Shown one piece after another: positions 26,714-47,323 of a stretch of DNA of 64,000 nucleotides. The stretch is from assembly GCA_965219875.1 (NCBI GenBank), contig CBDCOW010000001.1, positions 604,062 to 668,061 of the forward strand, given 5' to 3'. The notes below the pieces were generated by a model, which was not told the DNA's origin, did not search any database, and was given only the letters and a program-made list of their open reading frames with translations. The position numbers and the translations under genes were made by a program. The DNA comes from Dehalococcoidia bacterium (lineage in GTDB: Bacteria > Chloroflexota > Dehalococcoidia > SHYB01). Position 1 is the first letter of the stretch. The number at the start of each line of letters is the position of its first letter.

Positions 26714-28087
26714 TCATTCACCCAAGGCGCGGACCGCCGGACCGGTCGCCAGGGCCATTGCATCAACGACGCTGTCGAGGTCGTCCATCTTCAGGACCAG
26801 ATCGCGGAGGCGGTCGCAGTCCTCGGGGGAGAGCACCCGCAGGGCATTGTCGCGGTACTTCCGCGCGATCTCGTCCAGGCTGAGCGGGTCGCCCCACTCG
26901 CCGTGCGCCACGTCGACCTGTTCCCGTAGCTCGCACCCGTTTTTCAAACGGATGGTGACCGGGTTTGAAGCATCGCGATATTGGGACGACATCGATGGAT
27001 CGACGACGAGCTCGACTCTCTCTGCCATGGCCCGGGCCTCGGCCGATGACACCTCGGTGTCGTCGAAGCTCTCAATACCGACCTGCCGGTGCAGGATCGC
27101 CTCTGCCACGTTGTGCTGAAGGCTGACCTTGGCGGCGAGCCCGTCCTGGGGGCGAGGCAGGTTCATCCATCCCGCGTTGGGTACCGTCACCGTCACGTGC
27201 TCGACTTGCTCGGGTCTGATGTCATGTTCCAGGACAAGCTTCAGGACCGCGTCGACCCCACGGACGTTCCGATGACAGGTGGGATAGCCCTTGATCGCGA
27301 TGCCCGGATCAACGACATGAAATGGGCGTCCCAGCCCGCGCGTTGTGATCTCCGGGTCGAACCGGTCCAGGCCCATGAATTCGTCGGCCAAGCCGAGCGC
27401 TCCTTCGATTGGCTCCGGTGTGGCCGTCCAGCCGGCGCGAGCGAGCACGGCGGCCCGAACGCCGCCGCCGGCGGCGTTCCCCGCGTGATAGGGCTTCGTC
27501 ATCGTCCCCGTGTTTTTTTTGATTCCGCCCGCGTGAGAGGCGGCGATGCCCAGGGCCATGCGCGTCTGCCACGGATCAAGACCGAGGAGCTTTGCCGAGG
27601 CGGCGGCGGCTCCGATCACGCCGTAGACGCCGACGCTCGAGCCTCTCGCCGGCCCTTCCTGAAGGCCATAGCCATAGGCGACCTTGCCGTGGACCTCGAG
27701 ACCGATCACGAAGGCCTCAATGACCTTCCTCCCCGGCAGCTCCAGCTTCTCGGCGAGGGCGAAGACCGCGGGGAAGATGCTGCAGACGGGATGGCCTACG
27801 GGGAGGGCCGTCGCATCGAAGTCGAGGGCGTTGGCGAGGACCCCGTTGGCAAAGGCCGCGTTGGCGGCGCCGGTCCGATAGCCTCCGGCGATGACCCCGG
27901 CGTCGGGCGTTCCCCCTTCGCCCCGGGTATAGTCGATCACGAGTTGACCGACGGGTTGCGTCGCTCCCGCCAGGGCGACGCCGAAGGTGTCCAGCATCAC
28001 TTCTTTGCTAACGCGGATGGCTTCGGGCGGCAGGTCTTCGTAGCCGGTGCCGGCAATCCATTCAGCGATGGCTTCGGTGACGCTCAT
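26714..28087 (-). CDS. MmgE/PrpD family protein
   Basis: 457 aa; family length and pattern; 4-nt overlap with upstream gene. Confidence 0.75.
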   Translation of the reverse strand: MSVTEAIAEWIAGTGYEDLPPEAIRVSKEVMLDTFGVALAGATQPVGQLVIDYTRGEGGTPDAGVIAGGYRTGAANAAFANGVLANALDFDATALPVGHPVCSIFPAVFALAEKLELPGRKVIEAFVIGLEVHGKVAYGYGLQEGPARGSSVGVYGVIGAAAASAKLLGLDPWQTRMALGIAASHAGGIKKNTGTMTKPYHAGNAAGGGVRAAVLARAGWTATPEPIEGALGLADEFMGLDRFDPEITTRGLGRPFHVVDPGIAIKGYPTCHRNVRGVDAVLKLVLEHDIRPEQVEHVTVTVPNAGWMNLPRPQDGLAAKVSLQHNVAEAILHRQVGIESFDDTEVSSAEARAMAERVELVVDPSMSSQYRDASNPVTIRLKNGCELREQVDVAHGEWGDPLSLDEIARKYRDNALRVLSPEDCDRLRDLVLKMDDLDSVVDAMALATGPAVRALGE

Positions 28088-29382
28088 CGGCGCTGCGCTC
28101 TCCGGCAGATGTCCTCGATCTCCTCCTCATTCAGCATAACGGGGAACTTGTTACCCAGGGCGTCGAGACGCTCCTTCATCGCGTCGTAGACCTCCCGGAT
28201 GCGGTCGTCGTCCGTCGGCAGGCCCATCTCCTCGAGTTTCGCCCGCACCGTCTGCGGGCTGAGGAGGCCGTACGTCATCGCCGGCGTGGGGCGCATCCCG
28301 ACGAGGTCCAGATCGTAGGAGCTCAGCTCCAACTCCCGGTAGCTCTTTCCCCGCAGGTAGCCGAGGTAGTGCGGCGGATAGTCGATCAGGCTCATGTGTT
28401 CCCCGGTAATCGGCTGGAAGGGGAGTCGTTGAACGCCCGTGATCCGCTCGACGGTGGCCGAGAGCTCATGCAGCCTGGTCAAGTCGGCGCCCGTTTCGAT
28501 CCCGTAGAGCAACTGCAGGGACACGACGACCTCCTCGAGACTGGCAAAGCCCTGGTCGCCGATCGCGTTGACCGAGACCTGCGGCCATGCGCCCGCGGAC
28601 GTCGCGGCGAGGACCAGCGCCGTCGCCGACCCGAGGTTGTTGCGGGCGTGGAAGTAGATTGGCACGTCCCGCACCAGCCCCGCCCGCATGGTTTTCACGA
28701 GATATCGGGTAGCGTCTGGGGTCGATGCCCCCCTCGAGTCCGCCATCAAGAGGCTCTCGGCGCCGCTATTGAGATAGAAGTTCTGTCGATCGACGACCGT
28801 CTGCATATCCTCGAGGAAGTCGCCGTCGCCGCCGATGTAGACCGAGGAAACGCAGACGCCGAGACCCTTCTTGCTGGCATAGTCGATCGCTTTCGGGAGA
28901 TCGCGCAGGCGCTCATCGGACTCGGGGGCCTCGGCCGTACGACCGAGTTGACTGCGCGCCGGGACTGCCGATAGGCCGAGGGCCTGGGCGCCGCTATCCA
29001 CGATGCGGTCGATCTGCTCCTTATACTCCCCTTCCTGCCAGGTGCCGAACAGGCCCCACACCCGTATCTTGGTCTTGAGCCCCAATGAGGCGACCGCCCG
29101 AAGCCCCTCCCAGACCCGCTGGTCCTTTGCCGTTCCGTATTGGTTGGCTAGGAATACGGTTTCCTGGACGCCGACCGCGTCGAGAAGACGGGCTACCTCC
29201 TGGTACTCCTCCACCGAGTAGAGACGGCTCGCGGGAAGGTGGTCCAGTTTCAGGGGCGTCCAGTCCTGAATGACCAGCGGCTCACGGAAGTCGTACTGTT
29301 CCTGGATCTCGGGAAGGAAGTTATATGGGCTAACCTTGTGAAGATCGCCTTCCCACGGGCTGCCCGTGCCGGAGGCGCTCAT
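28084..29382 (-). CDS. divergent DRE-TIM (HMGL-like) metallolyase, paralogue 1 of 3
   Basis: IYFHARNNLGSATALVLAATSAGAW matches H-x-H...N..G.A HMGL-like metal motif; N-terminal ViQDwT..KlDH in place of canonical RDGEQ. Confidence 0.55.
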   Translation of the reverse strand: MSASGTGSPWEGDLHKVSPYNFLPEIQEQYDFREPLVIQDWTPLKLDHLPASRLYSVEEYQEVARLLDAVGVQETVFLANQYGTAKDQRVWEGLRAVASLGLKTKIRVWGLFGTWQEGEYKEQIDRIVDSGAQALGLSAVPARSQLGRTAEAPESDERLRDLPKAIDYASKKGLGVCVSSVYIGGDGDFLEDMQTVVDRQNFYLNSGAESLLMADSRGASTPDATRYLVKTMRAGLVRDVPIYFHARNNLGSATALVLAATSAGAWPQVSVNAIGDQGFASLEEVVVSLQLLYGIETGADLTRLHELSATVERITGVQRLPFQPITGEHMSLIDYPPHYLGYLRGKSYRELELSSYDLDLVGMRPTPAMTYGLLSPQTVRAKLEEMGLPTDDDRIREVYDAMKERLDALGNKFPVMLNEEEIEDICRRAQRR

Positions 29383-30410
29383 CGTTCCATCGCTCCCGCT
29401 CCGCCAGACGCGGCGTACTGCGGGTTGTTTACCATGTGACAGGCGACGGTATGCGAGCCCTCGGCTCCGACGAGCGGCGGCTCGTCTTCCTCGCAGATCG
29501 CTCGGGCGTAGAGGCAGCGGGTGCGAAACCGGCAGCCCGAGGGTGGATCAATGGGACTGGGGACCTCGCCGGGCAGGATGATCTCCTCGCGATCGATGTC
29601 GGGATGGGAGGGAAGTGCCGCCGAGAGGAGGGCCTGGGTGTAGGGGTGAAGCGGGCTCTCGAAGAGGGTCTCCGTCTCGGCTTGCTCGACGATCTTTCCC
29701 AGGTACATCACCGCGATCTTCATCGTCATGTACCGCACGGTGGCTAGGTCATGGGCTATGAGCAGATACGTCAGCCCCAGGCTCTCCTGGAGGTCTTTGA
29801 AGAGGTTCATGACCTGGGCCCGGATGGAGACATCCAGTGACGATACCGGCTCGTCAAGGATGATGACGCTCGGGTTGAGTGCCAGGGCCCGGGCCAGCGC
29901 AAGGCGTTGCCGCTGGCCGCCGCTGAACTCGTGGGGATACTGGGAGGCGACGCTAGGGGCCAACCCCACCTGCTCGAAGACCCACTTCACTCTGGCATCG
30001 ATCTCCTGGGCGGAGCCGAAGCCGTTGATCACCAGCGGCTCAGCGACGATGGAGCCCACCCGCATCCTCGGATTGAGCGAGCTGTACGGGTCCTGGAAGA
30101 CCGCCTGGAAGTTCGCGCGGTAGTCTCTGAGCTGCTTCCCGCGGAGGCTTCGGACGTCCCGGCCCCGGAATATGATCGTTCCGGCCGTCGGCTCTTCGAG
30201 GAGGAGGATCAGCCGGCCCGTCGTCGTCTTGCCGCACCCCGACTCGCCAACAAGACCCCACGTATCGCCCTCCTCCACGGAGAACGAGATGTCGTCGACG
30301 GCCTTGACCCAACTATTCGGCGCAAGGAACGGGATGCTCCTCCCTACGGGGAAGTGCTTTTTGAGGTGCTGGACCTCCAGGATTGTCTCAGTCACGTTTC
30401 TCCTCGACAT
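29379..30410 (-). CDS. ABC transporter ATP-binding protein (DppF/OppF-like)
   Basis: Walker [10 protein letters not shown], signature LSGGQRQR, Walker B ILDEP. Confidence 0.8.
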   Translation of the reverse strand: MSRRNVTETILEVQHLKKHFPVGRSIPFLAPNSWVKAVDDISFSVEEGDTWGLVGESGCGKTTTGRLILLLEEPTAGTIIFRGRDVRSLRGKQLRDYRANFQAVFQDPYSSLNPRMRVGSIVAEPLVINGFGSAQEIDARVKWVFEQVGLAPSVASQYPHEFSGGQRQRLALARALALNPSVIILDEPVSSLDVSIRAQVMNLFKDLQESLGLTYLLIAHDLATVRYMTMKIAVMYLGKIVEQAETETLFESPLHPYTQALLSAALPSHPDIDREEIILPGEVPSPIDPPSGCRFRTRCLYARAICEEDEPPLVGAEGSHTVACHMVNNPQYAASGGAGAMER

Positions 30411-31377
30411 GGAGCCAGCAGCTGGCTGTGTGCTCCCGTCCAACCGCTGCCGCGGGCGGGAACTCCTTCCAACAGACATCCATCACGTGCGGGCAACGCG
30501 GGGCGAACGTGCACCCTGCCGGCAGGTCCAGAAGCGATGGCGGCTGTCCCTGGATGGAATGGAGACGATCGACTTTCTGCTCCATCTTGGGCACGGAGTT
30601 CAGCAGGGCCTGGGTGTAGGGATGGCTGGGGCTATTGAAGATTTCGCGGACAGGGCCGGCCTCGACGATCTTGCCGGCGTACATCACCGCGACCTTGTGA
30701 CACATCTTGGCCACGATACCGAAATCGTGCGTGACGAAGATGATGGAGGTGCCCGTTTCCTGTTGCAGCTCGTTGAGCAGCCTCAGGTACTGGGCCTGGA
30801 TCGTGACGTCGAGGGAGGTGGTGGGCTCGTCGGCGATGATGAGCTGTGGCTCGTTGGCGAGGGAAAGCGCCCCAACCAGGCGCTGACGGATGCCCCCACT
30901 CATCTGGTGTGGGAACTGCCCCGCCCGAACCTCCGGGGATGAGATTTTTACCATACGGATCAGGTCCTGCACCCGTCCCTTCACCGCGGACCCGGAAAGC
31001 TTCTGATGGGTGGTAAGAGCCTCTCCCAACTGGTCGCCAATGGTGAAGACGGGATTGAGTGACGTCATCGGGTCCTGCAGGATCATGGCGATCTGCTGCC
31101 CCCGAACCCGGCGCATCTCTTCATCCGTGAGCTTGAGGAGATCCCGGCCGTCGAAGATGACCTCGCCGCCGACGATTGTCCCAGCCGGCTTGGGGACGAC
31201 TCGAAGAATCGAGAGGCAAGTGATGCTCTTGCCACAGCCCGACTCCCCAACCAGTCCGAGGGTCTCCCCACGATTGAGGGTGAAGCTCACCCCATCGACG
31301 GCTTTGACGATCCCCCGCCGAACGAAGAAATGGGTACGGAGGTCCCGCACCTCCAGGAGGGGTTGAGCCGTCTCCAT
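30388..31377 (-). CDS. ABC transporter ATP-binding protein (DppD/OppD-like)
   Basis: Walker A GESGCGKS, signature MSGGIRQR; C-terminal oligopeptide-type extension. Confidence 0.8.
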   Translation of the reverse strand: METAQPLLEVRDLRTHFFVRRGIVKAVDGVSFTLNRGETLGLVGESGCGKSITCLSILRVVPKPAGTIVGGEVIFDGRDLLKLTDEEMRRVRGQQIAMILQDPMTSLNPVFTIGDQLGEALTTHQKLSGSAVKGRVQDLIRMVKISSPEVRAGQFPHQMSGGIRQRLVGALSLANEPQLIIADEPTTSLDVTIQAQYLRLLNELQQETGTSIIFVTHDFGIVAKMCHKVAVMYAGKIVEAGPVREIFNSPSHPYTQALLNSVPKMEQKVDRLHSIQGQPPSLLDLPAGCTFAPRCPHVMDVCWKEFPPAAAVGREHTASCWLHVEEKRD

Positions 31378-31390
31378 CACTTGCCCCGCA

Positions 31391-31852
31391 TCAAGCGTCC
31401 CCTGCACCGCGGACCGCCGTCGCCGGCATGCTTGCATGCCGCGACACCACCTGCCACCGGCCGCCCCGCTTGATCCACACGTCGGTCAAGAGGAACGTCA
31501 CCTGGTGAATATCGGGCCCGGTATCGCTCTGACTATGCTCTTCCACCGACCCTCCGTAGATCCGGGCCAGCAGATCGCCGGTTGTCTCCTCCGTGTACTG
31601 CCACACCACCACAGCCGCGTCGGGGAACACCCGTACCTGCATGTCGCCGTACTCGAAGGACTTCGGCGCGTAGCGGGCCATCGACCCATCGATCCACTCT
31701 CGCTTCGACTCTCGAAGTCCCTTGCCGGCGGTGGTGATGACGAAGTCATCGGCGACGAACCGGTCGAGGGCCGCTTCGTCGTGGCTAAGCCAAGCCTCGA
31801 TCCAGTCCGTTTGCATCTGGATGATGGTCTGCGCTGTGTCGGCCTGAGTCAT
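31391..31852 (-). CDS. NTF2-like/SnoaL-like (DUF4440-type) protein
   Basis: 153 aa; ATG at 31852. Confidence 0.5.
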   Translation of the reverse strand: MTQADTAQTIIQMQTDWIEAWLSHDEAALDRFVADDFVITTAGKGLRESKREWIDGSMARYAPKSFEYGDMQVRVFPDAAVVVWQYTEETTGDLLARIYGGSVEEHSQSDTGPDIHQVTFLLTDVWIKRGGRWQVVSRHASMPATAVRGAGDA

Positions 31853-31866
31853 CGGCGAGCCTCTTG

Positions 31867-32670: not shown

Positions 32671-32860
32671 CCTGCTCCCGTCGTGACCTCGGGCTGAAGT
32701 TACCCGCACGCCACCCGGCTGTCAATTCCGGACAGCATGCTGGCCCCGCGTACGTTGACAGCGGCCAACGTGGAACCTAGCCTTGGGCCACCCCACCACG
32801 GGCTCCTTGTAGCGCCCTCTGGCCCGAGTTGGGATTGTCGCAAGGGAGAGGAGAACCGCT

Positions 32861-34168
32861 ATGGCCCAGAACGACACTCCTTGGGAGACAGACCTCTTCA
32901 AGGTCAGCCCGTTCAACTATGTACCGGAGGTGCGGGCGCAGTACAACTTTCGCGAGCCCATGGTCGTCCAGGACTTCACCTTCGCCAAGATGGATCACCT
33001 GGAGGCGACACGCCTGTACTCGCTCGAGGAGTACCAGGAGCTAGCGACGCTCATGGACGACATCGGCGTGAAGGAGACGGTCTTCATGACCTCTCACCAC
33101 GCCGGGACCCCCAAAGACGTGCGCGCCATGGAGGGGCTTCGGGCCGTCAGCAAGCTGGGCCTCAAGAACCTCAAGATACGAGTGTGGGGATGGTTCAACG
33201 CCTGGGATGCGGGAGAATACAAGGACCGAATCGACATGATGGCGGATACCGGAGCCCACTCCATGGGGCTGTCCGCTCTGCCGCCCCACATCCTCGACCA
33301 GTTTCGGCTGGCGAAGGCCGGGCCCGACTTCGACGAGCGCATTCGCGAGCTGCCGGACGCGATCGCCTACGCGAGAAAGAAGGGGCTCGACGTCTGCATC
33401 TCCTCCGCTCACGCCGGCCGGGTTGAGTTGCCGACGATCATCGAACGGGCCAACTTCTACATCGAGCAGGGAGCCACCAGCCTTCTCATGGCGGACTCAA
33501 AGGGCGTGGCGACGCCCGAGGCGACGAGATACTTCCTCACAAACGTCCGCGCGGGGCTGAAGGAAGACGTTCCGATCTACTACCACGTGCACGACAACTT
33601 TGGGACCGGGACCGCGCTCGCGCTCGCGGCCGCGACCGCGGGTGCCTGGCCGCAGGCGACGGTCAACGGGATCGCCGACCGGGGCTTCGCGGCGTTGGAA
33701 GAGGTCGTGATGTCGCTGGAGCTGCTCTACGGAGTCCGCACCGGCATCGACGTGAAAAAGCTGCAGCGGCTGTCGCGGACCATGGAGAGAATCATCGGGA
33801 TAAGCAATCCGCCGTACAAGGCCATCACGGGAGACTTCGTGAACATTCCAAGCCTGGTCCCCGGATACATTGGGGCGCTCCAGGGCAAGGGCTTTCTCGA
33901 GCTCGAACTCATGACCCCCTATGAGCTCGAGCTGGTCGGGCAGTACCCCCAGATGGTGATGACGTACAACATTCTCTGTAACGAGACGGTACAGGCCAAG
34001 CTGGAACAGATGGGTCTTCCCACCGGGCAGCGTGAGGTAGAGGAAGTCAAAGCAGCCCTCAGGCAACGGCTCGACGCCCAGGGCAACCTCTTTCCCGTGA
34101 TGCTCAACGACACGGAGGTCGAAGAGGTCTGCCGGGAACAGGTCGCGGCCATGGGCGCTGGGGCGTAG
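32861..34168 (+). CDS. divergent DRE-TIM (HMGL-like) metallolyase, paralogue 2 of 3
   Basis: IYYHVHDNFGTGTALALAAATAGAW; collinear with the paralogues at 28084..29382 and 46028..47323. Confidence 0.55.
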   Translation: MAQNDTPWETDLFKVSPFNYVPEVRAQYNFREPMVVQDFTFAKMDHLEATRLYSLEEYQELATLMDDIGVKETVFMTSHHAGTPKDVRAMEGLRAVSKLGLKNLKIRVWGWFNAWDAGEYKDRIDMMADTGAHSMGLSALPPHILDQFRLAKAGPDFDERIRELPDAIAYARKKGLDVCISSAHAGRVELPTIIERANFYIEQGATSLLMADSKGVATPEATRYFLTNVRAGLKEDVPIYYHVHDNFGTGTALALAAATAGAWPQATVNGIADRGFAALEEVVMSLELLYGVRTGIDVKKLQRLSRTMERIIGISNPPYKAITGDFVNIPSLVPGYIGALQGKGFLELELMTPYELELVGQYPQMVMTYNILCNETVQAKLEQMGLPTGQREVEEVKAALRQRLDAQGNLFPVMLNDTEVEEVCREQVAAMGAGA

Positions 34169-34413: not shown

Positions 34414-36222
34414 ATGCGATTCGGTCCCAAGATGTTGTTTGGTATCGTTGCGGGGCTCGCCGTCGTGGCCCTCGTGGTGGCCGCGTGCGGGGGGGCGCAA
34501 GGACCGCCCGGGCCGGCAGGGCCGGCAGGCGCTCAAGGCCCAGCGGGCGCCGAAGGCCCGGCGGGCGCCGAAGGCCCGGCGGGCGCTCAAGGCCCGGCGG
34601 CGGGTGTGGCTCCGGCTCCCACGGCCATGCCGGCGCCGACGGCCGCTCCCACGGCCATGCCGGCGCCGACGGCAACGCCCAGGCCGGCTCCGACGGCCGC
34701 TCCCACGGCCATGCCGGCGCCCTCGGGGAATGTCGCCATTGCCGTGCCTTCCTTCGGCAAGGAGAACCTGGACAAATCGCAGTCCGGCGGTCTCGAGCTG
34801 ATCTTCGTCGCAGCGCTGTTGGACTACTTCATCGGCGCTGATGAGACGGGCCAGCTTGACTTCAGTCTCGGCATCCTGGAAAGCCTCGAGACACCTGACG
34901 GCAAAGTCTATACGTTCAATCTCAAACCGGGTGCCAAGTGGCACGACGGCGAGACGATAGATGCCGCCGACGTGGTCTTTACCATGAGCCACTACAACAG
35001 GGAGGAGAGCTCTTGCGTCTCCTGTGGCTTGGTCAGAAGCGCCTTGGACCGGGTTGAGATCGTCGACGACACGACGGCCACGGTCCACCTCAAAGACACG
35101 AACATCTCGTTCATTCCCAGCCTCGGGGCCCTCGAGGGAGACCTGCTGCTGCTGCCGGAGCACCACTTCGCCAAGGTCGGAATCGAAGGTGGCTTCGAGG
35201 ACGATCCTCTAGGGAGCGGCCCCTTCAAGTTCGTGGACCGCAACATCGGTGAGTTCATCGAGTTCGAAGCCAATCTCGACTACTGGGATGCGGGCCGCGT
35301 GCCTTCCTTCGCCGGCCTTAGAATGGTCGTGGCCCCCGAAGCCAACACAAGGGTCGCGCTCATACGGAACGGGCAGGCGGACTTGGCGGAGGTGGACAAC
35401 GCGTCCGTGAACGGGCTGGCGGCGGACGGCTTCCGCATCAGCGGCCCCGACAGCGTGGGCTCCGCGATGCTCCAGTTCCTGCGGAGCTACGAGCCCGACC
35501 AACTGACGAACAAGCTGGACTTCCGGAAGGCCCTCATCCTCTCGGTGGACTGGGCGGCGATCTCCGGGGCGTTCTACGCGACTGGAGAAGAGGCTCGGCC
35601 GCTGGGCACGGCTCTCTTTACGCCGGTTGCTCTGGGCTATGACCCCTCGCTTCCGCCCTACGAGTTCGACCAGGACGAGGCGAGGAGACTCCTGGCCTCC
35701 TCAGGATACGCAGGTGAGACCGTGGTCCTCTGGAGTTGGGCGACCACCGGCAACCCATCTGGGCTGGACGTACCCCAGGCGGTTACCAGCGCCTGGCGGG
35801 ACATCGGCATCAACACGGAGATCATCCCCGTCGATCAGGGAGTCTTTATCTCCAAGGTCCGGGCGGACCCACAGGACTTCGATGCCGAAGTGTCTGTGAC
35901 CCTCGTGTCGCCGTCCTCCAGGCCGTCGATGCTCACCAACATCCGCATCTTCATGAACGGTCGTGAGGCGGGTGGCCTGGTAGAGGGCTTCTACGACAAG
36001 GAATTCATCAACAGCGCCTACGGCGAACTGATCGCTATCACGGACATTAACGAACGCGAGCAGCGACTACGGGCGCTTAACCGACAACTGCATGAGACGT
36101 ATTGGGCTGCTCCTATCTCGATACGCATTGTGCCGTACGCGGTGGGCGAGCGGATCGACAGTTGGACGCCTGGCCCTGGGGCGCCCACGAACCTTCGCCT
36201 GGAGACCATTACCCTCAAGTAA
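34414..36222 (+). CDS. ABC transporter substrate-binding lipoprotein (family 5, DppA/OppA-like) with collagen-like (GPAGAQ/GPAGAE) and APTAMPAPTA-repeat linker
   Basis: signal peptide + lipobox VAAC; G-X-Y triplets x9 then 10-aa Pro/Ala/Thr repeats; SBP_bac_5-like C-terminal body. Confidence 0.8.
   Translation: MRFGPKMLFGIVAGLAVVALVVAACGGAQGPPGPAGPAGAQGPAGAEGPAGAEGPAGAQGPAAGVAPAPTAMPAPTAAPTAMPAPTATPRPAPTAAPTAMPAPSGNVAIAVPSFGKENLDKSQSGGLELIFVAALLDYFIGADETGQLDFSLGILESLETPDGKVYTFNLKPGAKWHDGETIDAADVVFTMSHYNREESSCVSCGLVRSALDRVEIVDDTTATVHLKDTNISFIPSLGALEGDLLLLPEHHFAKVGIEGGFEDDPLGSGPFKFVDRNIGEFIEFEANLDYWDAGRVPSFAGLRMVVAPEANTRVALIRNGQADLAEVDNASVNGLAADGFRISGPDSVGSAMLQFLRSYEPDQLTNKLDFRKALILSVDWAAISGAFYATGEEARPLGTALFTPVALGYDPSLPPYEFDQDEARRLLASSGYAGETVVLWSWATTGNPSGLDVPQAVTSAWRDIGINTEIIPVDQGVFISKVRADPQDFDAEVSVTLVSPSSRPSMLTNIRIFMNGREAGGLVEGFYDKEFINSAYGELIAITDINEREQRLRALNRQLHETYWAAPISIRIVPYAVGERIDSWTPGPGAPTNLRLETITLK
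34490..34745 (+). repeat. in-frame tandem DNA repeats encoding the collagen-like and PT-rich linker of the SBP
   Basis: near-identical units (GGCCCGGCGGGCGCCGAAGGC; GCTCCCACGGCCATGCCGGCGCCGACGGC) read directly. Confidence 0.6.
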
Positions 36223-38076: not shown

Positions 38077-38119
38077 AGACGAGACCCGACCAAACAGCTC
38101 GTCTTTGACGAGAGAGCCG

Positions 38120-39790
38120 ATGACGCTGGACAAGAGCCTCGATCCGATTGGGTTCTCCATCATTTGGGGCCGTCTCGTCTCGATCGTAGACGAGGCCGCG
38201 CTCACCCTGGGGCGCACCGCATTCTCTCCGCTGATCACCGAATCGAACGATTTCGGCGTGGTGTTGCTCGATACCGACGGATACGCCGTGGCACAGAGCT
38301 CGTTCAGCATCCCGCCCTTCCTCGGGACGATTCCCGAGGCGGTCCGGAGCATCCTCAAGAAGTTCCCTCAGGAGACCTGGGTGGAAGGCGACGCCGCCCT
38401 GACCAACGACCCGTGGTACGCCGGAGGCCACCTGCTGGACATTACCCTCCTAACCCCCATCTTCTACGAGGGTCGGCTGGTGGCCTTCACCGGCAGCACC
38501 GCCCACTGGGCGGACATCGGCGGGACGGGCTTCAGCACCGATACCAATGACCTGTTCGAGGAGGGCCTGCTGATACCTCCCTCCAAGCTCTACCGGGGCG
38601 GCCACGTGGAGCAAGACTTGTTGGACCTGATCCTGCAGAACACCCGCGTGCCCGACAAGGTATTCGGGGACCTCAATGCCCAGATCGACGCCGGCACGGT
38701 CTGCGAACGTCGACTGGGCGACCTTCTGCGGGAGCACGACCTGTCCGACCTCGGCACGCTGGCCGCCTCTATTCACGATGTCGGAGAGCAGGCGATGCGG
38801 CGGCGCATCGCCGAGCTTCCCGACGGCCGGTATTGCCACGAGATCAACATAGATGGGCTCGGCTACGCGATCACGATCAGCGCGGCGATCGATGTCAAGG
38901 GCGACGAGATGGAGATCGACCTCGCCGGTACCACATCGCAGCTGCCGGGCGCGGTGAACTGCCCACCCGGGTACACCAAGGCGTTACTGTTCCACGCGCT
39001 CAAGTGCGTTCTCGACCCCACGACACCGAACAATGACGGCTGCCATCGGCCGATCACGGTGCACGCGCCGGTGGGGACCGTGGTCAATCCCCGGCCCCCG
39101 GCGGCGGTGAACGGAAGGCATCTCGTGGGACACATGATGTCGCGCGTCGTCTACGGCGCGCTGAAGCACGTATTCCCCGAGCACGTGATCGCCGACTGCG
39201 GCAGCATGCCGACGGTGGCCGCCAAGTTCAACAGCGTGGCAGCGAGCCAACACCCCTTCTCGTTCATCTTCATGGCGAATGGGGGCATGGGCGCTCGCGC
39301 CGCGAAGGACGGGCTCGCGTGTGCTCCCTTTCCGACAAACCCGAGCTGTGGCTCGGTGGAGATCATGGAGACAGACGTGCCGCTTCGAGTCCTCCGCAAG
39401 GAGATCTCGGCAGACTCGGGTGGCGCCGGGAGGTTCCGGGGCGGTCTGGGTCAGGAAGTGGAGATTGAGATCACGGGCACGGAACCTGTCGTCCTCTCGC
39501 TGTTCCTCGGCGGAGCGGTGTCGCCGCCGCACGGCTTCTTCGGAGGCGGCGATGGGACGTGCAACACCGCATCGCTCAACGGAGGCGGCCCACTGAACGC
39601 AGCCGAGCGGGTGCGGCTGCAACCCGGAGACAGGATCACCCTCAACTACGGCGGCGGCGGCGGCCAGGGGGCGCCGGAGGACCGTGACCCTGAGCTTGTG
39701 TGCGACGACCTCCGCAAAGGCTTCATTACAGCCCGCGCGGCGAAGGAAGTCTACGGGCTCGAGGCTTCCGGGGTGGCGGATGGCGCTTAG
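38120..39790 (+). CDS. hyuB: hydantoinase B/oxoprolinase family protein
   Basis: N-terminal DPIGFSIIWGRLVSIVDEAALTLGRTAFSPLITESNDFGVVL typical of HyuB; ATG 38120. Confidence 0.8.
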   Translation: MTLDKSLDPIGFSIIWGRLVSIVDEAALTLGRTAFSPLITESNDFGVVLLDTDGYAVAQSSFSIPPFLGTIPEAVRSILKKFPQETWVEGDAALTNDPWYAGGHLLDITLLTPIFYEGRLVAFTGSTAHWADIGGTGFSTDTNDLFEEGLLIPPSKLYRGGHVEQDLLDLILQNTRVPDKVFGDLNAQIDAGTVCERRLGDLLREHDLSDLGTLAASIHDVGEQAMRRRIAELPDGRYCHEINIDGLGYAITISAAIDVKGDEMEIDLAGTTSQLPGAVNCPPGYTKALLFHALKCVLDPTTPNNDGCHRPITVHAPVGTVVNPRPPAAVNGRHLVGHMMSRVVYGALKHVFPEHVIADCGSMPTVAAKFNSVAASQHPFSFIFMANGGMGARAAKDGLACAPFPTNPSCGSVEIMETDVPLRVLRKEISADSGGAGRFRGGLGQEVEIEITGTEPVVLSLFLGGAVSPPHGFFGGGDGTCNTASLNGGGPLNAAERVRLQPGDRITLNYGGGGGQGAPEDRDPELVCDDLRKGFITARAAKEVYGLEASGVADGA

Positions 39791-41882
39791 GGTCGGCGTC
39801 GATATTGGCGGCACCTTCACCGACTTTGTGCTCATCGACGACGTCTCCGGCGCCGTGCGCCAGAGCAAGGCCCTCACAACCTACCCGGATCCCAGCGAGG
39901 GCGTCACTGAAGGGCTGGGCAATCTGCTCGATAGCAACGGCACCGAGCCCCGGCGGCTCAAGGGCCTCGTCCATGGCACCACGCTGGTCGCCAATGCCAT
40001 GATCCAGCGGCGCGGCTCACGGACGGCGTTGCTGACGACCCAGGGCTACGGCGATGTGCTGGAGATCGGCCGGGAGCTCAAATACGACCTCTACGACCTC
40101 GACCAGGAGCGCCCGGAACCGCTTGTCCCCCGTTTCTGGAGGCGTCAGATAGATGAGCGCATCGGCGCTGACGGCTCAGTAGTGCGTCCCTTGGCGCTGG
40201 ACGGCCTGGCCTCCATCGCCCGCGAGTTGGAGGGGGATGAGATCGAGTCCGTCGCGGTGTCCATGATTCACGCCTACCTCAACCCCGACCACGAGCGCCG
40301 GGTGCGTGCTTGGCTCGAGGAGCACTACCCTGGTTGGACGGTGAGCATCTCCTCCGAGGTTGCTCCAGAGATTCGCGAGCTCGAACGGACGTCGACCACC
40401 GTGGCCAACGCCTACGTGCAGCCCTTGGTGGAGCAGTACCTGGAGAAGTTGGAGCGCGAGTTCCGTGGGGTCGGCTTCGCCGGATCGTTCCATCTCATGC
40501 TGTCGTCGGGCGGGGTCGGCTCTCCGGAAACCGCGCGGAGGCTGCCGATATGGCTCATCGAGTCCGGCGCCGCGGCGGGCGCCATGGCCGCGGGCTTCTA
40601 CGCGCGGACAGCGGAGATTCCGAGGGTGCTGTCGTTCGACATGGGCGGCACCACCGCGAAGATCTGCCTGGTCGACGACGGCGAGCCGATGCGCACGAAC
40701 GAGATCGAAAGCGCCCGCATCGCCCGATTCAAGAGGTTCAGCGGCATTCCCCTCAGGATGCCGGCGCTGGAACTGATCGAGATCGGGGCCGGTGGCGGCA
40801 GCATCGCCAACGTCGACCCGATGGGGCTCCTCCGCGTCGGCCCGCTCAGCGCGGGGGCGGACCCCGGCCCGGCATGCTACGGGCGGGGCGGCGACCGACC
40901 CACCGTTACGGACGCCGATCTTCTGCTCGGCTATCTCAACCCCGACCACTTTCTGGACGGAGCGATGACCCTCGATATGAGCGCGGCCGAACGGGCCATC
41001 GAAGAGCACGTTGCCGACCCGCTCGGACTCGACGTCACCGAGGCCGCGATCGGTATCAGCCAAGTCGTGAACGACAACATGGCCACGGCATCGCGCATGC
41101 ACGTCATCGAAAAGGGTCGTGACCCGCGTCTCTACACACTGGTCGTCTTCGGGGGCGCCGGACCGGTGCACGGGTACGAGATCGCTCGCATGCTGCACGC
41201 GCAACGGGTCGTGTACCTTTTGAACGCGGGGGTGGCCTCGGCCATGGGCCTCCTCATGGCTCCATTCTCGATGGACCTCGTGGGGACTCATTTCTCCGAG
41301 ATCGAGGCCTTGGACTGGGCGGAAGTCAAGGGACTGTACTCCCGGTTCGAGAGGGAGGCGACGGCGACCCTGGTCGAGGCCGGCGCCGACGTCGCGACCA
41401 TCCACATGCGGCGCACCGCCGACATGCGCTACGCGGGGCAGGCGCGCGAGGTCTCCGTCGAAATTCCTCAAGTCGACTTCGGCCCGGACATGACCGGCGC
41501 CCTGCGAGACGCATTCTTCAACGCGTACCGGAACCTCTACGGACGGCACCTGACCAACGTCGCGGTCGAGGCTGTGAACTGGCGCCTTCACGCGGTCGCA
41601 CCTCCGAGCCCGTTCAAACTGGAGCCGGCGTCCGCCGACGGGTCCCAGCGGGCCGGCCCCGCCGAATCGCGCCGCGCCTACTTTCAGGAATTGGGGGCCT
41701 TCGTGGACTGCCCCACCTACGACGCCGTGGACTTGACCCCCGACAGCGTCATCGCGGGCCCGGCGATCGTCGAGCAGCCCGGCTCCACCATCGTCATCGG
41801 CCCATCGGGCACGGGCCGGGTCGATCGATACCTGAACCTTGTTGTTGAGCTCAGCCACGCCGGAAGCACGCGGAAGGAGTAA
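39780..41882 (+). CDS. hyuA: hydantoinase A/oxoprolinase family protein
   Basis: N-terminal RVGVDIGGTFTDFVLID; start overlaps hyuB stop (ATGGCGCTTAG). Confidence 0.8.
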   Translation: MALRVGVDIGGTFTDFVLIDDVSGAVRQSKALTTYPDPSEGVTEGLGNLLDSNGTEPRRLKGLVHGTTLVANAMIQRRGSRTALLTTQGYGDVLEIGRELKYDLYDLDQERPEPLVPRFWRRQIDERIGADGSVVRPLALDGLASIARELEGDEIESVAVSMIHAYLNPDHERRVRAWLEEHYPGWTVSISSEVAPEIRELERTSTTVANAYVQPLVEQYLEKLEREFRGVGFAGSFHLMLSSGGVGSPETARRLPIWLIESGAAAGAMAAGFYARTAEIPRVLSFDMGGTTAKICLVDDGEPMRTNEIESARIARFKRFSGIPLRMPALELIEIGAGGGSIANVDPMGLLRVGPLSAGADPGPACYGRGGDRPTVTDADLLLGYLNPDHFLDGAMTLDMSAAERAIEEHVADPLGLDVTEAAIGISQVVNDNMATASRMHVIEKGRDPRLYTLVVFGGAGPVHGYEIARMLHAQRVVYLLNAGVASAMGLLMAPFSMDLVGTHFSEIEALDWAEVKGLYSRFEREATATLVEAGADVATIHMRRTADMRYAGQAREVSVEIPQVDFGPDMTGALRDAFFNAYRNLYGRHLTNVAVEAVNWRLHAVAPPSPFKLEPASADGSQRAGPAESRRAYFQELGAFVDCPTYDAVDLTPDSVIAGPAIVEQPGSTIVIGPSGTGRVDRYLNLVVELSHAGSTRKE

Positions 41883-41891
41883 GAGAGAGAG

Positions 41892-42290: not shown

Positions 42291-42326
42291 GCGGTCCCAA
42301 TCAATCCTGGAACGAGGAGACGTCCC

Positions 42327-43124: not shown

Positions 43125-43136
43125 CGGCCCGGCGCG

Positions 43137-44057: not shown

Positions 44058-45034
44058 CCCGCGATACGACAAAGCTGCTGGAGGGGAAGGTCGGGATCGT
44101 CACCGGCGCCGGCCGGGGCATAGGGAGAAGCGTCGCCAAAGCGCTGGCGGAGCAGGGCGCCCGCGTCGTCGTCAACGACCTGGGCGGAGCGGTCCAGGGC
44201 ACCTCCGAGTCGAGCAGCGCCGCGGCGGATGAAGTCGTGGCGGAGATCGAAGCCGGCGGTGGCGTCGCCGTGGCCAACTACGAATCGGTGGCCACGATGG
44301 AGGGAGGCGAGAGCATCGTCAGGACCGCGGTCGACGCCTTCGGGCGAGTCGATATCCTGGTGACCCCGGCCGGCAACCTCGCCGAGAACACGCTGGTCGA
44401 CATGACTGAAGCGGAGTGGGATGCGGTGATCGCAGTCCACCTGAAGGGCACCTTCACCGTCGCCAAATTCGCCTCGAAGGTGATGCGCGAGCAGCGCTGG
44501 GGCCGCATCATCCCCATTACGTCCGTCGCCGGGCTCTGGGGAAACCGAGGGCAGGCAAACTACGCCGCCGCTAAGGATGGCGTCGCCGGGTTCGCCCGGT
44601 CGATCGCCCGCGACCTGGGATGGTACGGCATCACGGTGAACTGCATTTCCCCGGGAGCGGACACACGGATGATGTCCGCCGTCGCCAAGTCCCCCGAATC
44701 GCGCCACGGCTCGGAGATGGGGGACGGACTGGTACCCACACAGTTCCAGAGGCCGCCCGAGGCCATCGCCCCCGTCGTCGTGTGGCTCGCCTCCGACGAA
44801 GCCGCCAACGTGAATGGACAGATCGTCCACGTGGCCGGGGGGGTCCTGGGTCTCATGAGCCAGCCGGCCGTCGTCCGCGGCATGACCAAGCCGGACGCAC
44901 CCTGGAGCGTCGAGGACATCGCCGCGGTCTTTCCCACGACGCTAGGGGTCGACCTGTCCCCACAGATCCTGTGGGGGGGCTGGCGCCCGCCCATCGCGGC
45001 GCCTCCGGGCACCTGGGGAAAGGGCTGGTACTAG
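44054..45034 (+). CDS. SDR-family oxidoreductase (C-terminally extended), paralogue of preceding gene
   Basis: VTGAGRGIGRS motif, YAAAK; 4-nt overlap with upstream gene. Confidence 0.75.
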   Translation: MTRDTTKLLEGKVGIVTGAGRGIGRSVAKALAEQGARVVVNDLGGAVQGTSESSSAAADEVVAEIEAGGGVAVANYESVATMEGGESIVRTAVDAFGRVDILVTPAGNLAENTLVDMTEAEWDAVIAVHLKGTFTVAKFASKVMREQRWGRIIPITSVAGLWGNRGQANYAAAKDGVAGFARSIARDLGWYGITVNCISPGADTRMMSAVAKSPESRHGSEMGDGLVPTQFQRPPEAIAPVVVWLASDEAANVNGQIVHVAGGVLGLMSQPAVVRGMTKPDAPWSVEDIAAVFPTTLGVDLSPQILWGGWRPPIAAPPGTWGKGWY

Positions 45035-45038
45035 CGCC

Positions 45039-46031
45039 GTGCCGCGGACGGGGCTTTGCATCGGCAACTGGGCGCCCGTCGAGCTCGTCCAGGAGGCTGC
45101 GAGGCTAGCCGAGGCGCGGGGTTACGACACGCTCTGGATGACCGAGTCGTCCACGGGGATCGGCAAGGATGCCCCTTCCCAGCTCGCCGCCGCGGCGCTG
45201 GCAACGACAGACATTCGCCTCGGTACCGCCGTTCTCCCTATCTATACCCGGACTCCGACGCTCCTGGCCCAAGTGGCGACGAGCATGGACGAGATCTCGG
45301 AAGGCCGCTTCGTATTGGGCCTTGGGAGCAGCCACGGGCCGAACATGCTCGCCCACCATGGCGTCGCCCACGAGCGGCCCTTCCAGCGGATGCGCGAGTG
45401 CGTCGCCATCCTGCGCGATGCGTTGGGGACGGGGGAGGCGAGCTTCGAGGGGGAGATCTTCAGCATCCCCAGCCTCGAACTGCTGCGGCCAAGACCGGAG
45501 CGTCGCGTTCCAGTCTATCTCGCCGCACTGGCGCCAAAGATGACCAATTTCGCCGCCACGGCGGCGGACGGGGTGATCCTCAACATGACCACCCCCGAGC
45601 ACCTCGGCGAAGCCGTCCCACGGATGAGGGATGCGGCGGCCCAGGCGGGCCGGGACCCCGACGCCTTCGACGTTGCGTGCCTGGTGTTGGCGTCCGCCGA
45701 CGGCGCCCGCGCCGAGGAGGTCTGCAGCCTCCAGATCGCGTTCTACTTGCGCATGCCCTTCTACCAGAGCCATCTCAGGCGCGGCGGGTTCGCGCCCGAG
45801 GTCGACGGTATCCTCAAAGGACTCGAGCGCGGCGGTGTTGAAGAGGGCGCCAGAGCGGTGTCGGCCCGAATGCTCGACAGCCTGGCGCTGGCCGGCAGCC
45901 CCGGCCGCTGGGATGAGCGGCTCCAGCGCTACCGCGACGCGGGCGTCGACCTGCCCTGTCCGTTCTTCTTCCAGCAGGAAGGCGATCTGAGGACGCCGCT
46001 GCTCGAGGGAATCGCCGCTCTGGACGGCTAG
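45039..46031 (+). CDS. LLM-class flavin/F420-dependent oxidoreductase
   Basis: paralogue of 24459..25499 (collinear identity along whole length). Confidence 0.75.
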   Translation: MPRTGLCIGNWAPVELVQEAARLAEARGYDTLWMTESSTGIGKDAPSQLAAAALATTDIRLGTAVLPIYTRTPTLLAQVATSMDEISEGRFVLGLGSSHGPNMLAHHGVAHERPFQRMRECVAILRDALGTGEASFEGEIFSIPSLELLRPRPERRVPVYLAALAPKMTNFAATAADGVILNMTTPEHLGEAVPRMRDAAAQAGRDPDAFDVACLVLASADGARAEEVCSLQIAFYLRMPFYQSHLRRGGFAPEVDGILKGLERGGVEEGARAVSARMLDSLALAGSPGRWDERLQRYRDAGVDLPCPFFFQQEGDLRTPLLEGIAALDG

Positions 46032-47323
46032 CCGACGGCGCCGCGGCAGACCGCCTCCACCTCGGCGTCGTTCAGCATCACGGGGAACTTGTTGCCCAGG
46101 GCCTCGAGCTGCACGAGAAGGGCTTCATAGGCCTTTTGCACAGCGGCGCTGTCGCTCCGCAGGCCCATTTGCTTGAGCTTTGCCTCGACCGTCCTGGTGC
46201 TGAGCCCAAGGTTGGTCATGAGCAGGTTAGGACGCGCTCCAACCAGTTCAGGCTCGTAAGGCGTCTTGACGCCGAGGTCCTTGAAACTCTTCCCGTTCAC
46301 CATGCCGATATAGGTGTCCGGCAACCCCGATGCCGTCTGGAACGGTCCGGTGATCGCCTTGTATGGAGGGTTCACTATGCCGGTGATCCTCTCGATGGTA
46401 TGAGAGAGTTTCGGCAATTTGCGCAGGTCGACACCGGTGTGGATCCCGTACTGGAGCTCGAGCGACACGACGACCTCTTCGAGGCTGGCGAAGCCCATGT
46501 CGGCGAGGCCGTTCACGGACACCTCTGGGCAGGCCCCCGCGGAGGTCGCCGCCAACGCCTGCGCCGTGGCAGTGCCGAAACAGTCGTGAACGTGATAGAA
46601 GATCGGGATGTCCTTCTTGAGGCCGGCGCGGATCTGCGACACGAAGTACCGGGTGGCGTCGGGGGTCGCGATCCCTTTGGAGTCGGACATCAGCAGGCTC
46701 TCAGCACCCAGATCGATGTAGTGGTTCTGCCGCGCGATCGCTGTTGGGAAGTCCTCTGGACCGCCCACGTAGACGAACCCCACGCATACCGGAAGTCCCT
46801 TCTTCCTCGCGTAGTCGATGGCGTCGGGAAGCTCGTCCACCGGCTCCTCGGCAGCGCCGTTGCCCTTCGCCTGCGCCAAGACCTTCGGCAGGGAGGCGGA
46901 AAGACCGATGGAGTCCGCCCCATAGTCGGCCATCTTGTCGATGCGGGATTTGTACTCGCCGGGTGCCCACGTCCCGAAGTGGCCCCACGTCCGCACCTTG
47001 ATCTTCAACCCCAGCTTGGTGACGCCGCGGACCGCTTCCCAGACACGGGTCTCTTTCGGTGCGCCGGTGTACTGGTCCGTCAAGAACACCGTCTCCGGGA
47101 TGCCTATCTCGTCGAGCTGTCGGGCGATCTCCTGGTACTCTTCGACCGAGTACAGGCGTGTGCCTTCCAGATGGTCCATCTTGACAAGCGTGAAGTCCTG
47201 GATGAAGACAGGCTCCCGAAAGTTGTACTGGTCCCGCACCTCGGGGATGAAGTTATAGCGGCTCGTCTCGTAGAGCTCGCCTTCCCATGGCGTTCCGTTC
47301 GTGTCCATTAGGGCCCCCTCCAT
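46028..47323 (-). CDS. divergent DRE-TIM (HMGL-like) metallolyase, paralogue 3 of 3
   Basis: IFYHVHDCFGTATAQALAATSAGAC; collinear with the other two paralogues. Confidence 0.55.
   Translation of the reverse strand: MEGALMDTNGTPWEGELYETSRYNFIPEVRDQYNFREPVFIQDFTLVKMDHLEGTRLYSVEEYQEIARQLDEIGIPETVFLTDQYTGAPKETRVWEAVRGVTKLGLKIKVRTWGHFGTWAPGEYKSRIDKMADYGADSIGLSASLPKVLAQAKGNGAAEEPVDELPDAIDYARKKGLPVCVGFVYVGGPEDFPTAIARQNHYIDLGAESLLMSDSKGIATPDATRYFVSQIRAGLKKDIPIFYHVHDCFGTATAQALAATSAGACPEVSVNGLADMGFASLEEVVVSLELQYGIHTGVDLRKLPKLSHTIERITGIVNPPYKAITGPFQTASGLPDTYIGMVNGKSFKDLGVKTPYEPELVGARPNLLMTNLGLSTRTVEAKLKQMGLRSDSAAVQKAYEALLVQLEALGNKFPVMLNDAEVEAVCRGAVG

Follow-up and report, generated by a model that had tools for sequence, protein, structure and literature searches.

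The three genes analyzed here lie in a 64,000-nucleotide stretch of the genome of a Dehalococcoidia bacterium (assembly GCA_965219875.1, contig CBDCOW010000001.1, positions 604,062 to 668,061); this whole stretch is called the window below. They encode paralogous proteins of about 430 amino acids (aa) that are predicted to fold like the DRE-TIM (HMGL-like) enzymes. At the position of an acidic metal ligand, all three carry a lysine, a feature shared with a rare group of proteins referred to here as the K clade. The genes and their characteristic motifs are placed in the window as follows.

28084..29382, minus strand: paralogue 1, 432 aa, a K-clade DRE-TIM protein of the L-K-L-D-H / H-A-R type
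29239..29268, minus strand: QDWTPLKLDH motif of paralogue 1, residues 39-48, in place of xDTTLRDGEQ
29248-29250, minus strand: Lys45 of paralogue 1, at the metal-ligand position
28639..28650, minus strand: H-A-R-N of paralogue 1, residues 245-248, with Arg for the second metal histidine
32861..34168, plus strand: paralogue 2, 435 aa, a K-clade DRE-TIM protein, first gene of a long plus-strand run
32969..32998, plus strand: QDFTFAKMDH motif of paralogue 2, residues 37-46
32987-32989, plus strand: Lys43 of paralogue 2, at the metal-Asp position, with Ala42 at the essential-Arg position and His46 at the Gln position
33584..33595, plus strand: H-V-H-D of paralogue 2, residues 242-245, counterpart of the canonical metal-binding HxH
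46028..47323, minus strand: paralogue 3, annotated with 431 aa, probably 426 aa from 47308
47171..47200, minus strand: QDFTLVKMDH motif of paralogue 3, residues 42-51, with Lys48 at 47180-47182

All three reading frames were translated without internal stops into 432, 435, and 431 aa, and the products aligned from end to end with pairwise identities of 54 to 59% and a mean column identity of 73%, a similarity far above chance. An earlier description made from the letters alone, called the sequence-only reading here, had proposed homology over the whole length, and the alignment bears this out. The motifs that it quoted were also found, with REP..[IV]QD[WF]T..K[LM]DH and the LGNKFPVMLN tail present in all three proteins. 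The H-x-[HR]-[DN] part of the IY[FY]H[AV][HR][DN] motif falls at residues 245-248, 242-245, and 244-247 of paralogues 1, 2, and 3, respectively. When all open reading frames (ORFs) of the window were scanned with a hidden Markov model (HMM) of the family, exactly three copies were detected, at 655 to 668 bits, and no fourth copy or fragment was found. A GGGAGAGGAG ribosome-binding site lies upstream of the start of paralogue 2. In paralogue 3, a GGAGGGAG ribosome-binding site is located within the first five annotated codons, and an orthologue with 98% identity (P0006) is 426 aa long; thus, translation probably begins at Met6 (47308). Paralogue 1 overlaps the upstream ATP-binding cassette (ABC) ATPase gene and the downstream MmgE/PrpD gene by 4 bp each, and paralogue 3 converges on the LLM gene at 45039-46031, with which it likewise shares 4 bp. 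The G+C content of the window is 65%. The ratio of nonsynonymous to synonymous changes (dN/dS) was unsuitable for comparing the paralogues, since synonymous sites are saturated at 50 to 70% protein identity.

The proteins matched the Pfam family HMGL-like (PF00682) with 60 to 92 bits against a gathering score of 29 (E values of 1e-16 to 1e-26). These alignments began at profile position 19 or 20, and the DRE-bearing segment of the Pfam profile lay outside the match. An AlphaFold2 model of paralogue 2, calculated from a 29-sequence family alignment, reached a pLDDT of 90.9 and a pTM of 0.91. Its closest structures in a Foldseek search of the PDB were homocitrate synthase (HCS) 6ktq, MAM synthase 6e1j, HCS 3ivu, and isopropylmalate synthase (IPMS) 3rmj, with E values of 1e-19 to 1e-16; HCS 2zyf and IPMS 3eeg belonged to the same top tier, in which identities were 17 to 24%. 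DmpG-type aldolases, HMG-CoA lyase, and carboxyltransferase domains followed in a lower tier, and the Foldseek probability was 1.00 for HCS, IPMS, HMG-CoA lyase (HMGCL), DmpG, and the carboxyltransferase domain of pyruvate carboxylase (PC-CT). Judged by the Pfam matches, the predicted model, and the Foldseek search, the three paralogues carry the DRE-TIM fold, as had been suggested from their motifs.

The family profile aligned with HCS and IPMS over family residues 34-426, and it covered residues 31-382 of the Sulfolobus acidocaldarius HCS and residues 5-372 of the Thermus thermophilus HCS. Because the alignment continues to residue ~372 of the 376- to 382-aa T. thermophilus enzyme, the C-terminal part corresponds to the normal small subdomains of a short-form HCS. 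The segment that had been taken for a ~120-aa C-terminal extension is thus made up mostly of the ordinary HCS subdomains I and II, and what is specific to the clade is confined to the final ~25 residues, which carry the conserved FPVMLN…CR (FPxxL…CR) motif. The short-form HCSs (6ktq and 2ztj/2zyf; TIGR02090 LEU1_arch and TIGR02660 NifV) share the architecture and the length class of the paralogues, neither group has a LeuA regulatory domain, and they are the best match of the family both in sequence (profile E value of 5e-48) and in fold. Common to both are the first Asp/Thr of DxTxRD, the HxH pair (intact in paralogues 2 and 3), the DS/DT-G strand, and a G-[DE]-R-x-x-A-x-L-E-E segment. The barrel and subdomain I also align with IPMS and MAM synthase (3rmj and 6e1j; E value of 4e-37), from which the paralogues differ by having no LeuA_dimer domain. 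We conclude that the K clade is derived from the short homocitrate/isopropylmalate-synthase architecture, a TIM barrel with two small C-terminal subdomains, in which the active site has been rebuilt.

In spite of this origin, searches of NCBIfam, Pfam, and PDB sequences for a known subfamily gave matches far under the cut-offs. The best NCBIfam scores, 105 to 129 bits, compare with cut-offs of 462 to 517 (TIGR02090, NF002085, and TIGR02660), so that the paralogues, at 17 to 24% identity to HCS, reach about a quarter of the values required of that family. The HMG-CoA lyase model NF004283 gave 19 to 28 bits (cut-off of 246), and its R-D motif is absent from the paralogues; the DmpG/BphI-type aldolase models gave 40 to 53 bits (cut-offs of 229 to 286), and the carboxyltransferase (PC / OadA / 5S) models gave 11 to 34 bits (cut-offs of >400). 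No NCBIfam model dedicated to the K clade was found, and a search of PDB sequences with the family profile returned no member of the clade. HMG-CoA lyase and the DmpG/BphI aldolases are DRE-TIM barrel C-C lyases that work via a stabilized enolate, but they are more distant fold matches and keep both Arg-Asp and HxH. The aldolases additionally have a communication domain and an acylating aldehyde dehydrogenase partner; no Pfam match to DmpG_comm was found in the three paralogues and no aldehyde dehydrogenase among the scanned ORFs around them. HMG-CoA lyase requires an acyl-CoA substrate, for which the ORFs scanned at the paralogues provide no context. The scores below the cut-offs and the absent catalytic residues of the subfamilies place the three paralogues outside every characterized subfamily, and the sequence-only reading was right in declining to assign them to IPMS, citramalate or homocitrate synthase, HMG-CoA lyase, DmpG aldolase, or the carboxyltransferases.

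The changes in the active site are best described against the Brassica juncea MAM synthase (BjMAMS; 6E1J). In this enzyme the metal is held by Asp90, His288, and His290, Arg89 is essential and has been described as invariant across the DRE-TIM superfamily, Gln93 and His388 bridge the substrate and CoA, and His388 acts as the catalytic base with the support of Glu227 and Tyr399; mutation of the Arg, the metal Asp, Glu227, or His388 abolishes activity (PMC11532901). Profile-PDB alignments placed the family segment "DvTlaKidh" on "DSTLREGEQ" and "DTTLRDGEQ", and the positions of Arg89, Asp90, Gln93, and His288/His290 map one-to-one. The QDFTFAKMDH segment aligns without gaps on xDTTLRDGEQ, so the replacement of the canonical RDGEQ (DRE) motif noted earlier holds. 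The equivalent of the essential Arg89 is Leu in paralogue 1, Ala42 in paralogue 2, and Val47 in paralogue 3, and that of the acidic ligand Asp90 is Lys in all three. The Gln93 equivalent is His and the Glu227 equivalent is Ala or Val. The strand of the supporting Glu (x-E-D-x-x-R) reads SSAHAGR, SSVYIGG, or GFVYGGP, the H-x-S-G-I-H segment with His388 has given way to unrelated sequence (NIPSLVPGY, SLIDYPPHY, or TASGLPDTY), and G-E-R-x-G-N has become G/A-D-x-G-F-A. As far as the aligned sequences indicate, every residue required for acetyl-CoA Claisen chemistry is lost. The HxH pair is kept as HVHD in paralogues 2 and 3, and it reads HAR[ND] in paralogue 1 and its whole orthologue group. One of the two metal histidines is thus lost in paralogue 1, a change that the "[HR]" of the quoted motif had hidden. 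The label "metallolyase" itself is unproven, with an invariant Lys for the metal Asp/Glu, the essential Arg lost, and the second His gone in paralogue 1.

These changes bear directly on the idea that the genes encode ordinary short-form homocitrate, citramalate, or isopropylmalate synthases making 2-alkylmalates from acetyl-CoA and a 2-oxoacid. HCS, IPMS, and MAM synthases are indeed the best matches in sequence and fold, and some relatives carry the JGI label "D-citramalate synthase". However, the scores of 105 to 129 bits fall far short of cut-offs of about 460 to 520, and the paralogues have Lys for the metal Glu/Asp and Ala, Leu, or Val for the substrate Arg, lack the catalytic Glu and the His of H-x-[SA]-G-x-H found in HCS, and carry the additional FPxxL…CR tail. 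The residues that are gone (the Arg, the metal Asp/Glu, the Glu227 equivalent, and the His388 motif) are those whose mutation inactivates the MAM synthase (PMC11532901), and no isomerase or dehydrogenase partner for chain elongation was found among the window ORFs scanned. We regard this explanation as highly improbable, and the labels "citramalate synthase", "2-isopropylmalate synthase", and "pyruvate carboxyltransferase domain protein" are almost certainly wrong for these genes.

To define the K clade operationally, we used a family-HMM score of at least ~360 bits together with Lys at the metal-ligand position, His242, Phe276 (GxRGF), and Pro412 (FP/YPxxL tail), numbered as in paralogue 2. 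A first word-indexed homologue search gave 27 relatives, nearly all from ENA metagenome assemblies and often two or three per contig, and the set was enlarged by an exhaustive profile search of 1.84 billion representatives and a second profile search. The lowest score of a K-type protein was 366 bits and the highest of a canonical D/E-type protein 257 bits, with a gap in between. The K-type set comprised 139 full-length sequences, that is, about 136 database proteins and the three of the window. Lys43 and His242 were present in 139 of 139 sequences, Pro412 in 138, His244 in 133, Phe276 in 125, and Arg42 and Asn269 in 112 each; Asp212, Asp38, and Thr40 also were invariant or nearly so, although the sequences are 25 to 30% identical overall. 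The window proteins belong to an Arg-less subclade of 25 sequences, in which an Asp-His pair has been gained where canonical enzymes have Glu and Gln (K-[LM]-D-H). In a distance tree, paralogue 1 grouped with P0007, P0008, P0011, P0012, and P0013, paralogue 2 with P0001 (100% identical) and P0002 (71% identical), and paralogue 3 with P0005, P0006, P0009, and P0010. Each of the three orthologue groups has members in other assemblies, and the groups persist in several metagenome-assembled genomes; the triplication is therefore old and maintained.

The closest K-clade loci in species-representative genomes were in two Dehalococcoidia metagenome-assembled genomes, at 71%, 59%, and 48% identity. 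The part of the clade that retains the Arg has representatives in cultured Actinomycetota (Streptomyces, Microbacterium, Arthrobacter, Saccharopolyspora, Kribbella, Amycolatopsis, Pseudonocardia, Rhodococcus, and Sinomonas). Its proteins, for example, P0193 of Microbacterium, P0198 of Arthrobacter, P0237 of Pseudonocardia, and P0234/P0239 of Amycolatopsis, have K43, H242, H244, F276, and P412 in common with the window proteins and resemble them in length, in the tail, and in the association with a Dpp-type ABC system and a family-5 binding protein. They differ in that they are only 27 to 33% identical, keep the Arg (R-K motif), and have no Asp-His pair. A tblastn search with an actinobacterial member against the PLSDB plasmids gave no match. 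In the sources, members are named "hypothetical protein", "pyruvate carboxyltransferase domain-containing protein", or, automatically by JGI, "D-citramalate synthase", and we found no description of the clade in the literature on DRE-TIM enzymes or on OHCU decarboxylase or barbiturase/cyanuric acid hydrolase contexts. A metagenome scan yielded 80 loci, of which only four (L014-L017) were K-type and the remainder encoded canonical synthases. In two of these, L014 (2265-4925, plus strand) and L015, from peat or soil metagenomes, the K-type domain occupies residues ~488-759 of an 887-aa ORF starting with GTG; this long ORF, within a 1002-codon stop-to-stop frame, is possibly an N-terminal fusion or an over-long ORF call in high-GC DNA.

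Some relatives outside the K-type set share the tail but not the lysine. Eight proteins of ~390 to 445 aa (P0040, P0067, P0081, P0086, P0096, P0098, P0110, and P0164) have the YPxWL…CR tail and keep HxH, with Lys43 replaced by Ser, Asn, Ala, Glu, or Arg. This distribution indicates that the acidic metal ligand has been lost repeatedly in the tail-sharing lineage. Loss of the hallmark catalytic residues of the superfamily, together with this variability (K/S/N/A/E) in the wider lineage, would also be expected of catalytically inactive DRE-TIM-like proteins that act as regulators, scaffolds, or ligand-binding subunits for neighboring enzymes. We consider this quite unlikely, as the residues lining the former active site (K43, H242, D212, and D38/T40) are the best conserved of all, and the fusions to enzyme domains and the operon positions described below are typical of pathway enzymes.

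A stronger case can be made for enzymes that still use a metal, with a carbamylated Lys43 and His242/His244 (and Asn269) binding a divalent cation for decarboxylation, carboxyl transfer, or retro-aldol cleavage. The HxH pair is present in 133 of 139 members, His242 in all, and Asn269 in 112. Carboxyltransferase domains (pyruvate carboxylase CT, OadA 2nx9, and transcarboxylase 5S) have the same superfamily fold, are detectable as relatives together with oxaloacetate-decarboxylase domains (weakly, with E values of 1e-14 to 1e-4), and use a carbamylated Lys and two His at the metal site for decarboxylation or carboxyl transfer; a carbamyl-lysine is likewise known from amidohydrolases like those encoded near K-clade genes. 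The K clade is similarly tied to decarboxylation through recurrent neighbors and fusion partners. Several points disagree with a retained metal site, however. The carboxyltransferase lysine is on another strand (KDMAG), which reads L-M-A-D-S-K-G here with Ala at the Lys position, and these enzymes keep the Asp of RD(A)HQ and the Arg, unlike the paralogues. A carbamylated Lys at the backbone position of the Asp would probably overshoot the metal site unless the helix moved. In paralogue 1 and its orthologues, the His-to-Arg change is conserved across at least five sequences; two cationic side chains would then sit in the former metal site and, at least in paralogue 1, speak against canonical metal binding. 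Finally, no biotin-carrier family match was found among the ORFs scanned across the cluster. On balance, a retained metal site in this form is a doubtful, though serious, alternative.

The three genes are part of an island that extends from ~19 kb to 50 kb of the window and is bordered on the right by a DUF3800 gene, followed by the housekeeping genes purF-like, purM, purH, and gap. The neighboring genes that matter for the argument are the following.

24459..25499, plus strand: LLM-class (F420-type) oxidoreductase A, of duplicated module A
25500..26717, minus strand: Amidohydro_2-family gene, last in the paralogue 1 operon
26714..28087, minus strand: MmgE/PrpD-family gene, translationally coupled to paralogue 1
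29379..31437, minus strand: Dpp/Opp-type ABC ATPase gene pair, upstream of paralogue 1
34414..36222, plus strand: family-5 solute-binding protein, downstream of paralogue 2, with weak NikA/CntA/DppA-type matches
45039..46031, plus strand: LLM-class (F420-type) oxidoreductase C, of duplicated module C, beside paralogue 3
47948..50067, plus strand: second Dpp/Opp-type ABC ATPase gene pair, divergent from paralogue 3

On the minus strand, paralogue 1 is the third gene of an operon marked by 4-bp overlaps (ATPase-ATPase-paralogue 1-MmgE/PrpD-Amidohydro_2). Among solved structures, the MmgE/PrpD protein most resembles cis-aconitate decarboxylase (CAD; 1e-52) and iminodisuccinate epimerase (4e-51); its identification as 2-methylcitrate dehydratase (PrpD) was rejected, with a match of 7e-4. 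For the Amidohydro_2 protein, the closest solved structures are PtmU3 (6omp, 1.7e-41) and DitZ (8uyr, 5.6e-34), and the LigW/ACMSD-type decarboxylases rank behind them. The plus-strand run that begins with paralogue 2 continues with the binding protein, a thiamine pyrophosphate (TPP) enzyme, a caprolactamase-like hydantoinase B/A, three SDRs, and an F420-type LLM protein. In its 36367-41882 part, the TPP enzyme scored best on the sulfoacetaldehyde acetyltransferase (Xsc) and acetolactate synthase models, below the cut-offs. The annotated ORFs of the TPP enzyme and hydantoinase B/A overlap at 38015-38076 and 39684-39790, and for this reason their start codons probably lie later than annotated. 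Upstream in the window are genes for an AtzE-like amidase, a PuuE-like deacetylase, and permeases. Among the ORFs scanned across the cluster, no match to CoA ligase or transferase families was found.

The arrangement of the island also speaks to the number of copies. LLM A and LLM C are 60% identical, the two ATPase pairs, compared in matching order, show identities of 48% and 54%, and this divergence is about equal to that of the K-clade paralogues. The presence of paralogous LLM genes and ATPase pairs indicates that the island grew by duplication of a module consisting of an LLM gene, a K-clade gene, and an ATPase pair. The sequence-only reading had explained the triplication by sequential aldol or lyase steps; duplication of whole modules beside paralogues 1 and 3 does not favor this, and it favors parallel modules for related substrates instead. 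The three copies, in modules that also include SDR genes, would then carry out the same kind of step on three related substrates and not consecutive steps of one pathway.

To place the window in a wider context, the neighborhoods of 13 distinct loci, including the window, were surveyed. A family-5 solute-binding protein was found in 11 of the 13, usually with a complete Dpp/Opp-type ABC system. Asp/Glu/hydantoin racemases recur beside K-clade genes (L017, L095, L097, and L099), an AtzD/barbiturase-family ring-opening amidohydrolase occurs in L094 and L099, and the L094 protein is above the TIGR02714 cut-off and encoded by a gene that overlaps the K-clade gene by 4 bp. Other neighbors include TRZ/ATZ-type and cytosine-deaminase-type amidohydrolases, AP_endonuc_2 barrels, creatinase-like M24 proteins, a creatininase/AllG protein in L005, and Amdase-family proteins in L003 and L095. 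At least 18 members are fusions of the K-clade protein to a C-terminal OHCU decarboxylase domain (PF09349). These proteins of ~580 to 630 aa (P0045, P0058, P0197, P0212, P0213, P0220, P0234, P0239, and P0243-P0252; loci L095 and L099) come from Amycolatopsis, "Microbacter", and metagenomes, and their RefSeq name is taken from the small C-terminal domain only. In Pseudonocardia (L098), the OHCU decarboxylase is a separate gene overlapping the K-clade stop codon. Altogether, the clade occurs together with four unrelated families of decarboxylase type (OHCU decarboxylase, Amdase, CAD-like MmgE/PrpD, and Amidohydro_2), and the pairing of a paralogue 1-type gene with a CAD-like MmgE/PrpD gene occurs in three genomes (the window, L002, and L100). 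Transposase, integrase, or recombinase genes flank K-clade genes in L003, L004, L095, and L100, loci of metagenomic or actinobacterial origin, and this suggests that the modules are mobile.

The pairing of an HIU (5-hydroxyisourate) hydrolase with an OHCU decarboxylase is known from purine catabolism. The fusions and adjacent genes resemble it, and the neighborhoods are rich in amidohydrolases and racemases for cyclic amides; the barrel could thus have become a hydrolase of cyclic amides or ureides, such as a ureidomalonate-type amidase or a counterpart of 5-hydroxyisourate hydrolase that supplies the fused OHCU decarboxylase. Such an activity would be without precedent in the DRE-TIM superfamily, however, and several dedicated amidohydrolases are already encoded in the clusters. 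In the window, no OHCU-decarboxylase-like ORF was found with an HMM made from the C-terminal domains of the fusion proteins. Furthermore, the ABC system implies that a stable substrate is imported, and 5-hydroxyisourate is a short-lived compound. A hydrolase accordingly seems unlikely to us.

The reading that we prefer, and to which we give an even chance, is that the K clade comprises uncharacterized CoA-independent catabolic lyases and that the window holds copies of them in parallel modules; metal-free and metal-dependent catalysis are roughly even within it. The paralogues probably catalyze an unassigned bond cleavage by which nitrogen-rich organic acids, once imported, are broken down. 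Instead of CoA-dependent Claisen synthases, they would more likely be lyases that need no CoA and that cleave or form a C-C bond (possibly a C-N or C-CO2 bond) beside a carbonyl or carboxylate. A Lys at the backbone position of the Asp would bring its amine roughly to the usual metal site, and a carbanion/enolate or iminium could then be stabilized by the Lys43 ammonium group and His242/His244, replacing the Asp-bound divalent metal. The substrates may be small, polar, nitrogen-rich organic acids (cyclic amide, ureide, or hydantoin derivatives) taken up by the Dpp-type ABC importer, and the lyase step would adjoin a decarboxylation step. For the Arg-less subclade of the window, candidates are carboxylate-rich acids that contain N or are alicyclic. 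The reactions of OHCU decarboxylase, hydantoin racemase, and Amdase all proceed through a carbanion whose carbon has carbonyl or ureido groups on either side, and in view of this chemistry a C-C step at such a carbon, next to a decarboxylation, is the most economical guess.

Other observations weigh against this view. In some proteins that share the C-terminal tail, S, N, A, or E stands where the K clade has its Lys; this residue may thus not be central to catalysis throughout the wider tail-sharing lineage. The near-universal His pair equally fits a metal site that has been kept, with the substrate or a carbamylated Lys contributing a ligand. Where the Lys43 amine would lie with respect to the His pair is deduced from homology and side-chain length, and the substrate and reaction class of all members are drawn from gene context. 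The neighbors of the Arg-less genes in the window (LLM, SDR, CAD-like, PtmU3-like, and TPP enzyme genes) differ from those of the actinobacterial genes (AP_endonuc_2, racemases, heterocycle amidohydrolases, and OHCU decarboxylase), and the N-heterocycle context therefore transfers only indirectly to the window, for whose copies alicyclic or polycarboxylate substrates are equally possible.

A more specific version of the lyase proposal is put forward tentatively, as a possibility with chances well below even: the K clade would be a metal-independent class of DRE-TIM lyases in which a Lys ammonium group or Schiff base takes the place of the metal. Working in tandem with a decarboxylase, these enzymes would act on the acidic carbon of an intermediate of the hydantoin, ureide, or malonyl type, making or breaking a C-C bond there. 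If this were true, imported N-heterocyclic or aminopolycarboxylate compounds would be degraded by a catabolic route not yet described, the tandem decarboxylase would be OHCU-decarboxylase-like, Amdase, CAD-like, or Amidohydro_2, and the Dehalococcoidia subclade would have gone one step further by dispensing with the "invariant" Arg and radiating into three substrate-specific copies. An invariant Lys for the metal Asp, together with loss of this Arg, is surprising in a conserved rare lineage. The DRE-TIM superfamily is defined by the Arg and an Asp/His/His metal center that stabilizes an enolate, and the K clade would show that the fold supports another catalytic solution. It also marks an uncharacterized catabolic module made up of a Dpp-type importer, a racemase, heterocycle amidohydrolases, and a decarboxylase. 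The occurrence of this module in culturable Actinomycetota makes the chemistry experimentally accessible, and its expansion extends what is known of paralogue-rich catabolic islands in Dehalococcoidia.

Three further observations concern other parts of the window. The ORFs at 12805-14097, 14777-15685, and 17265-18947 (430, 302, and 560 aa, respectively) had no Pfam match at E ≤ 1e-4 and may be genuine genes or high-GC shadow ORFs. On the minus strand at 774-3369, three adjoining genes for a class II aldolase/adducin-type protein, a HAD hydrolase, and a 400-aa protein like the RuBisCO large subunit (PF00016, 1e-38) form what looks like a RuBisCO-like-protein (form IV) cluster. The PurH-like ORF at 53870-55222 (plus strand) is 450 aa long and contains only the AICARFT/IMPCHase domain, without the MGS-like domain. 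Relatives with 94% identity also have 450 aa, and those with ~65% identity have ~507 aa with PF02142; the short ORF is either a lineage-specific truncation or a shared miscall of the start codon.

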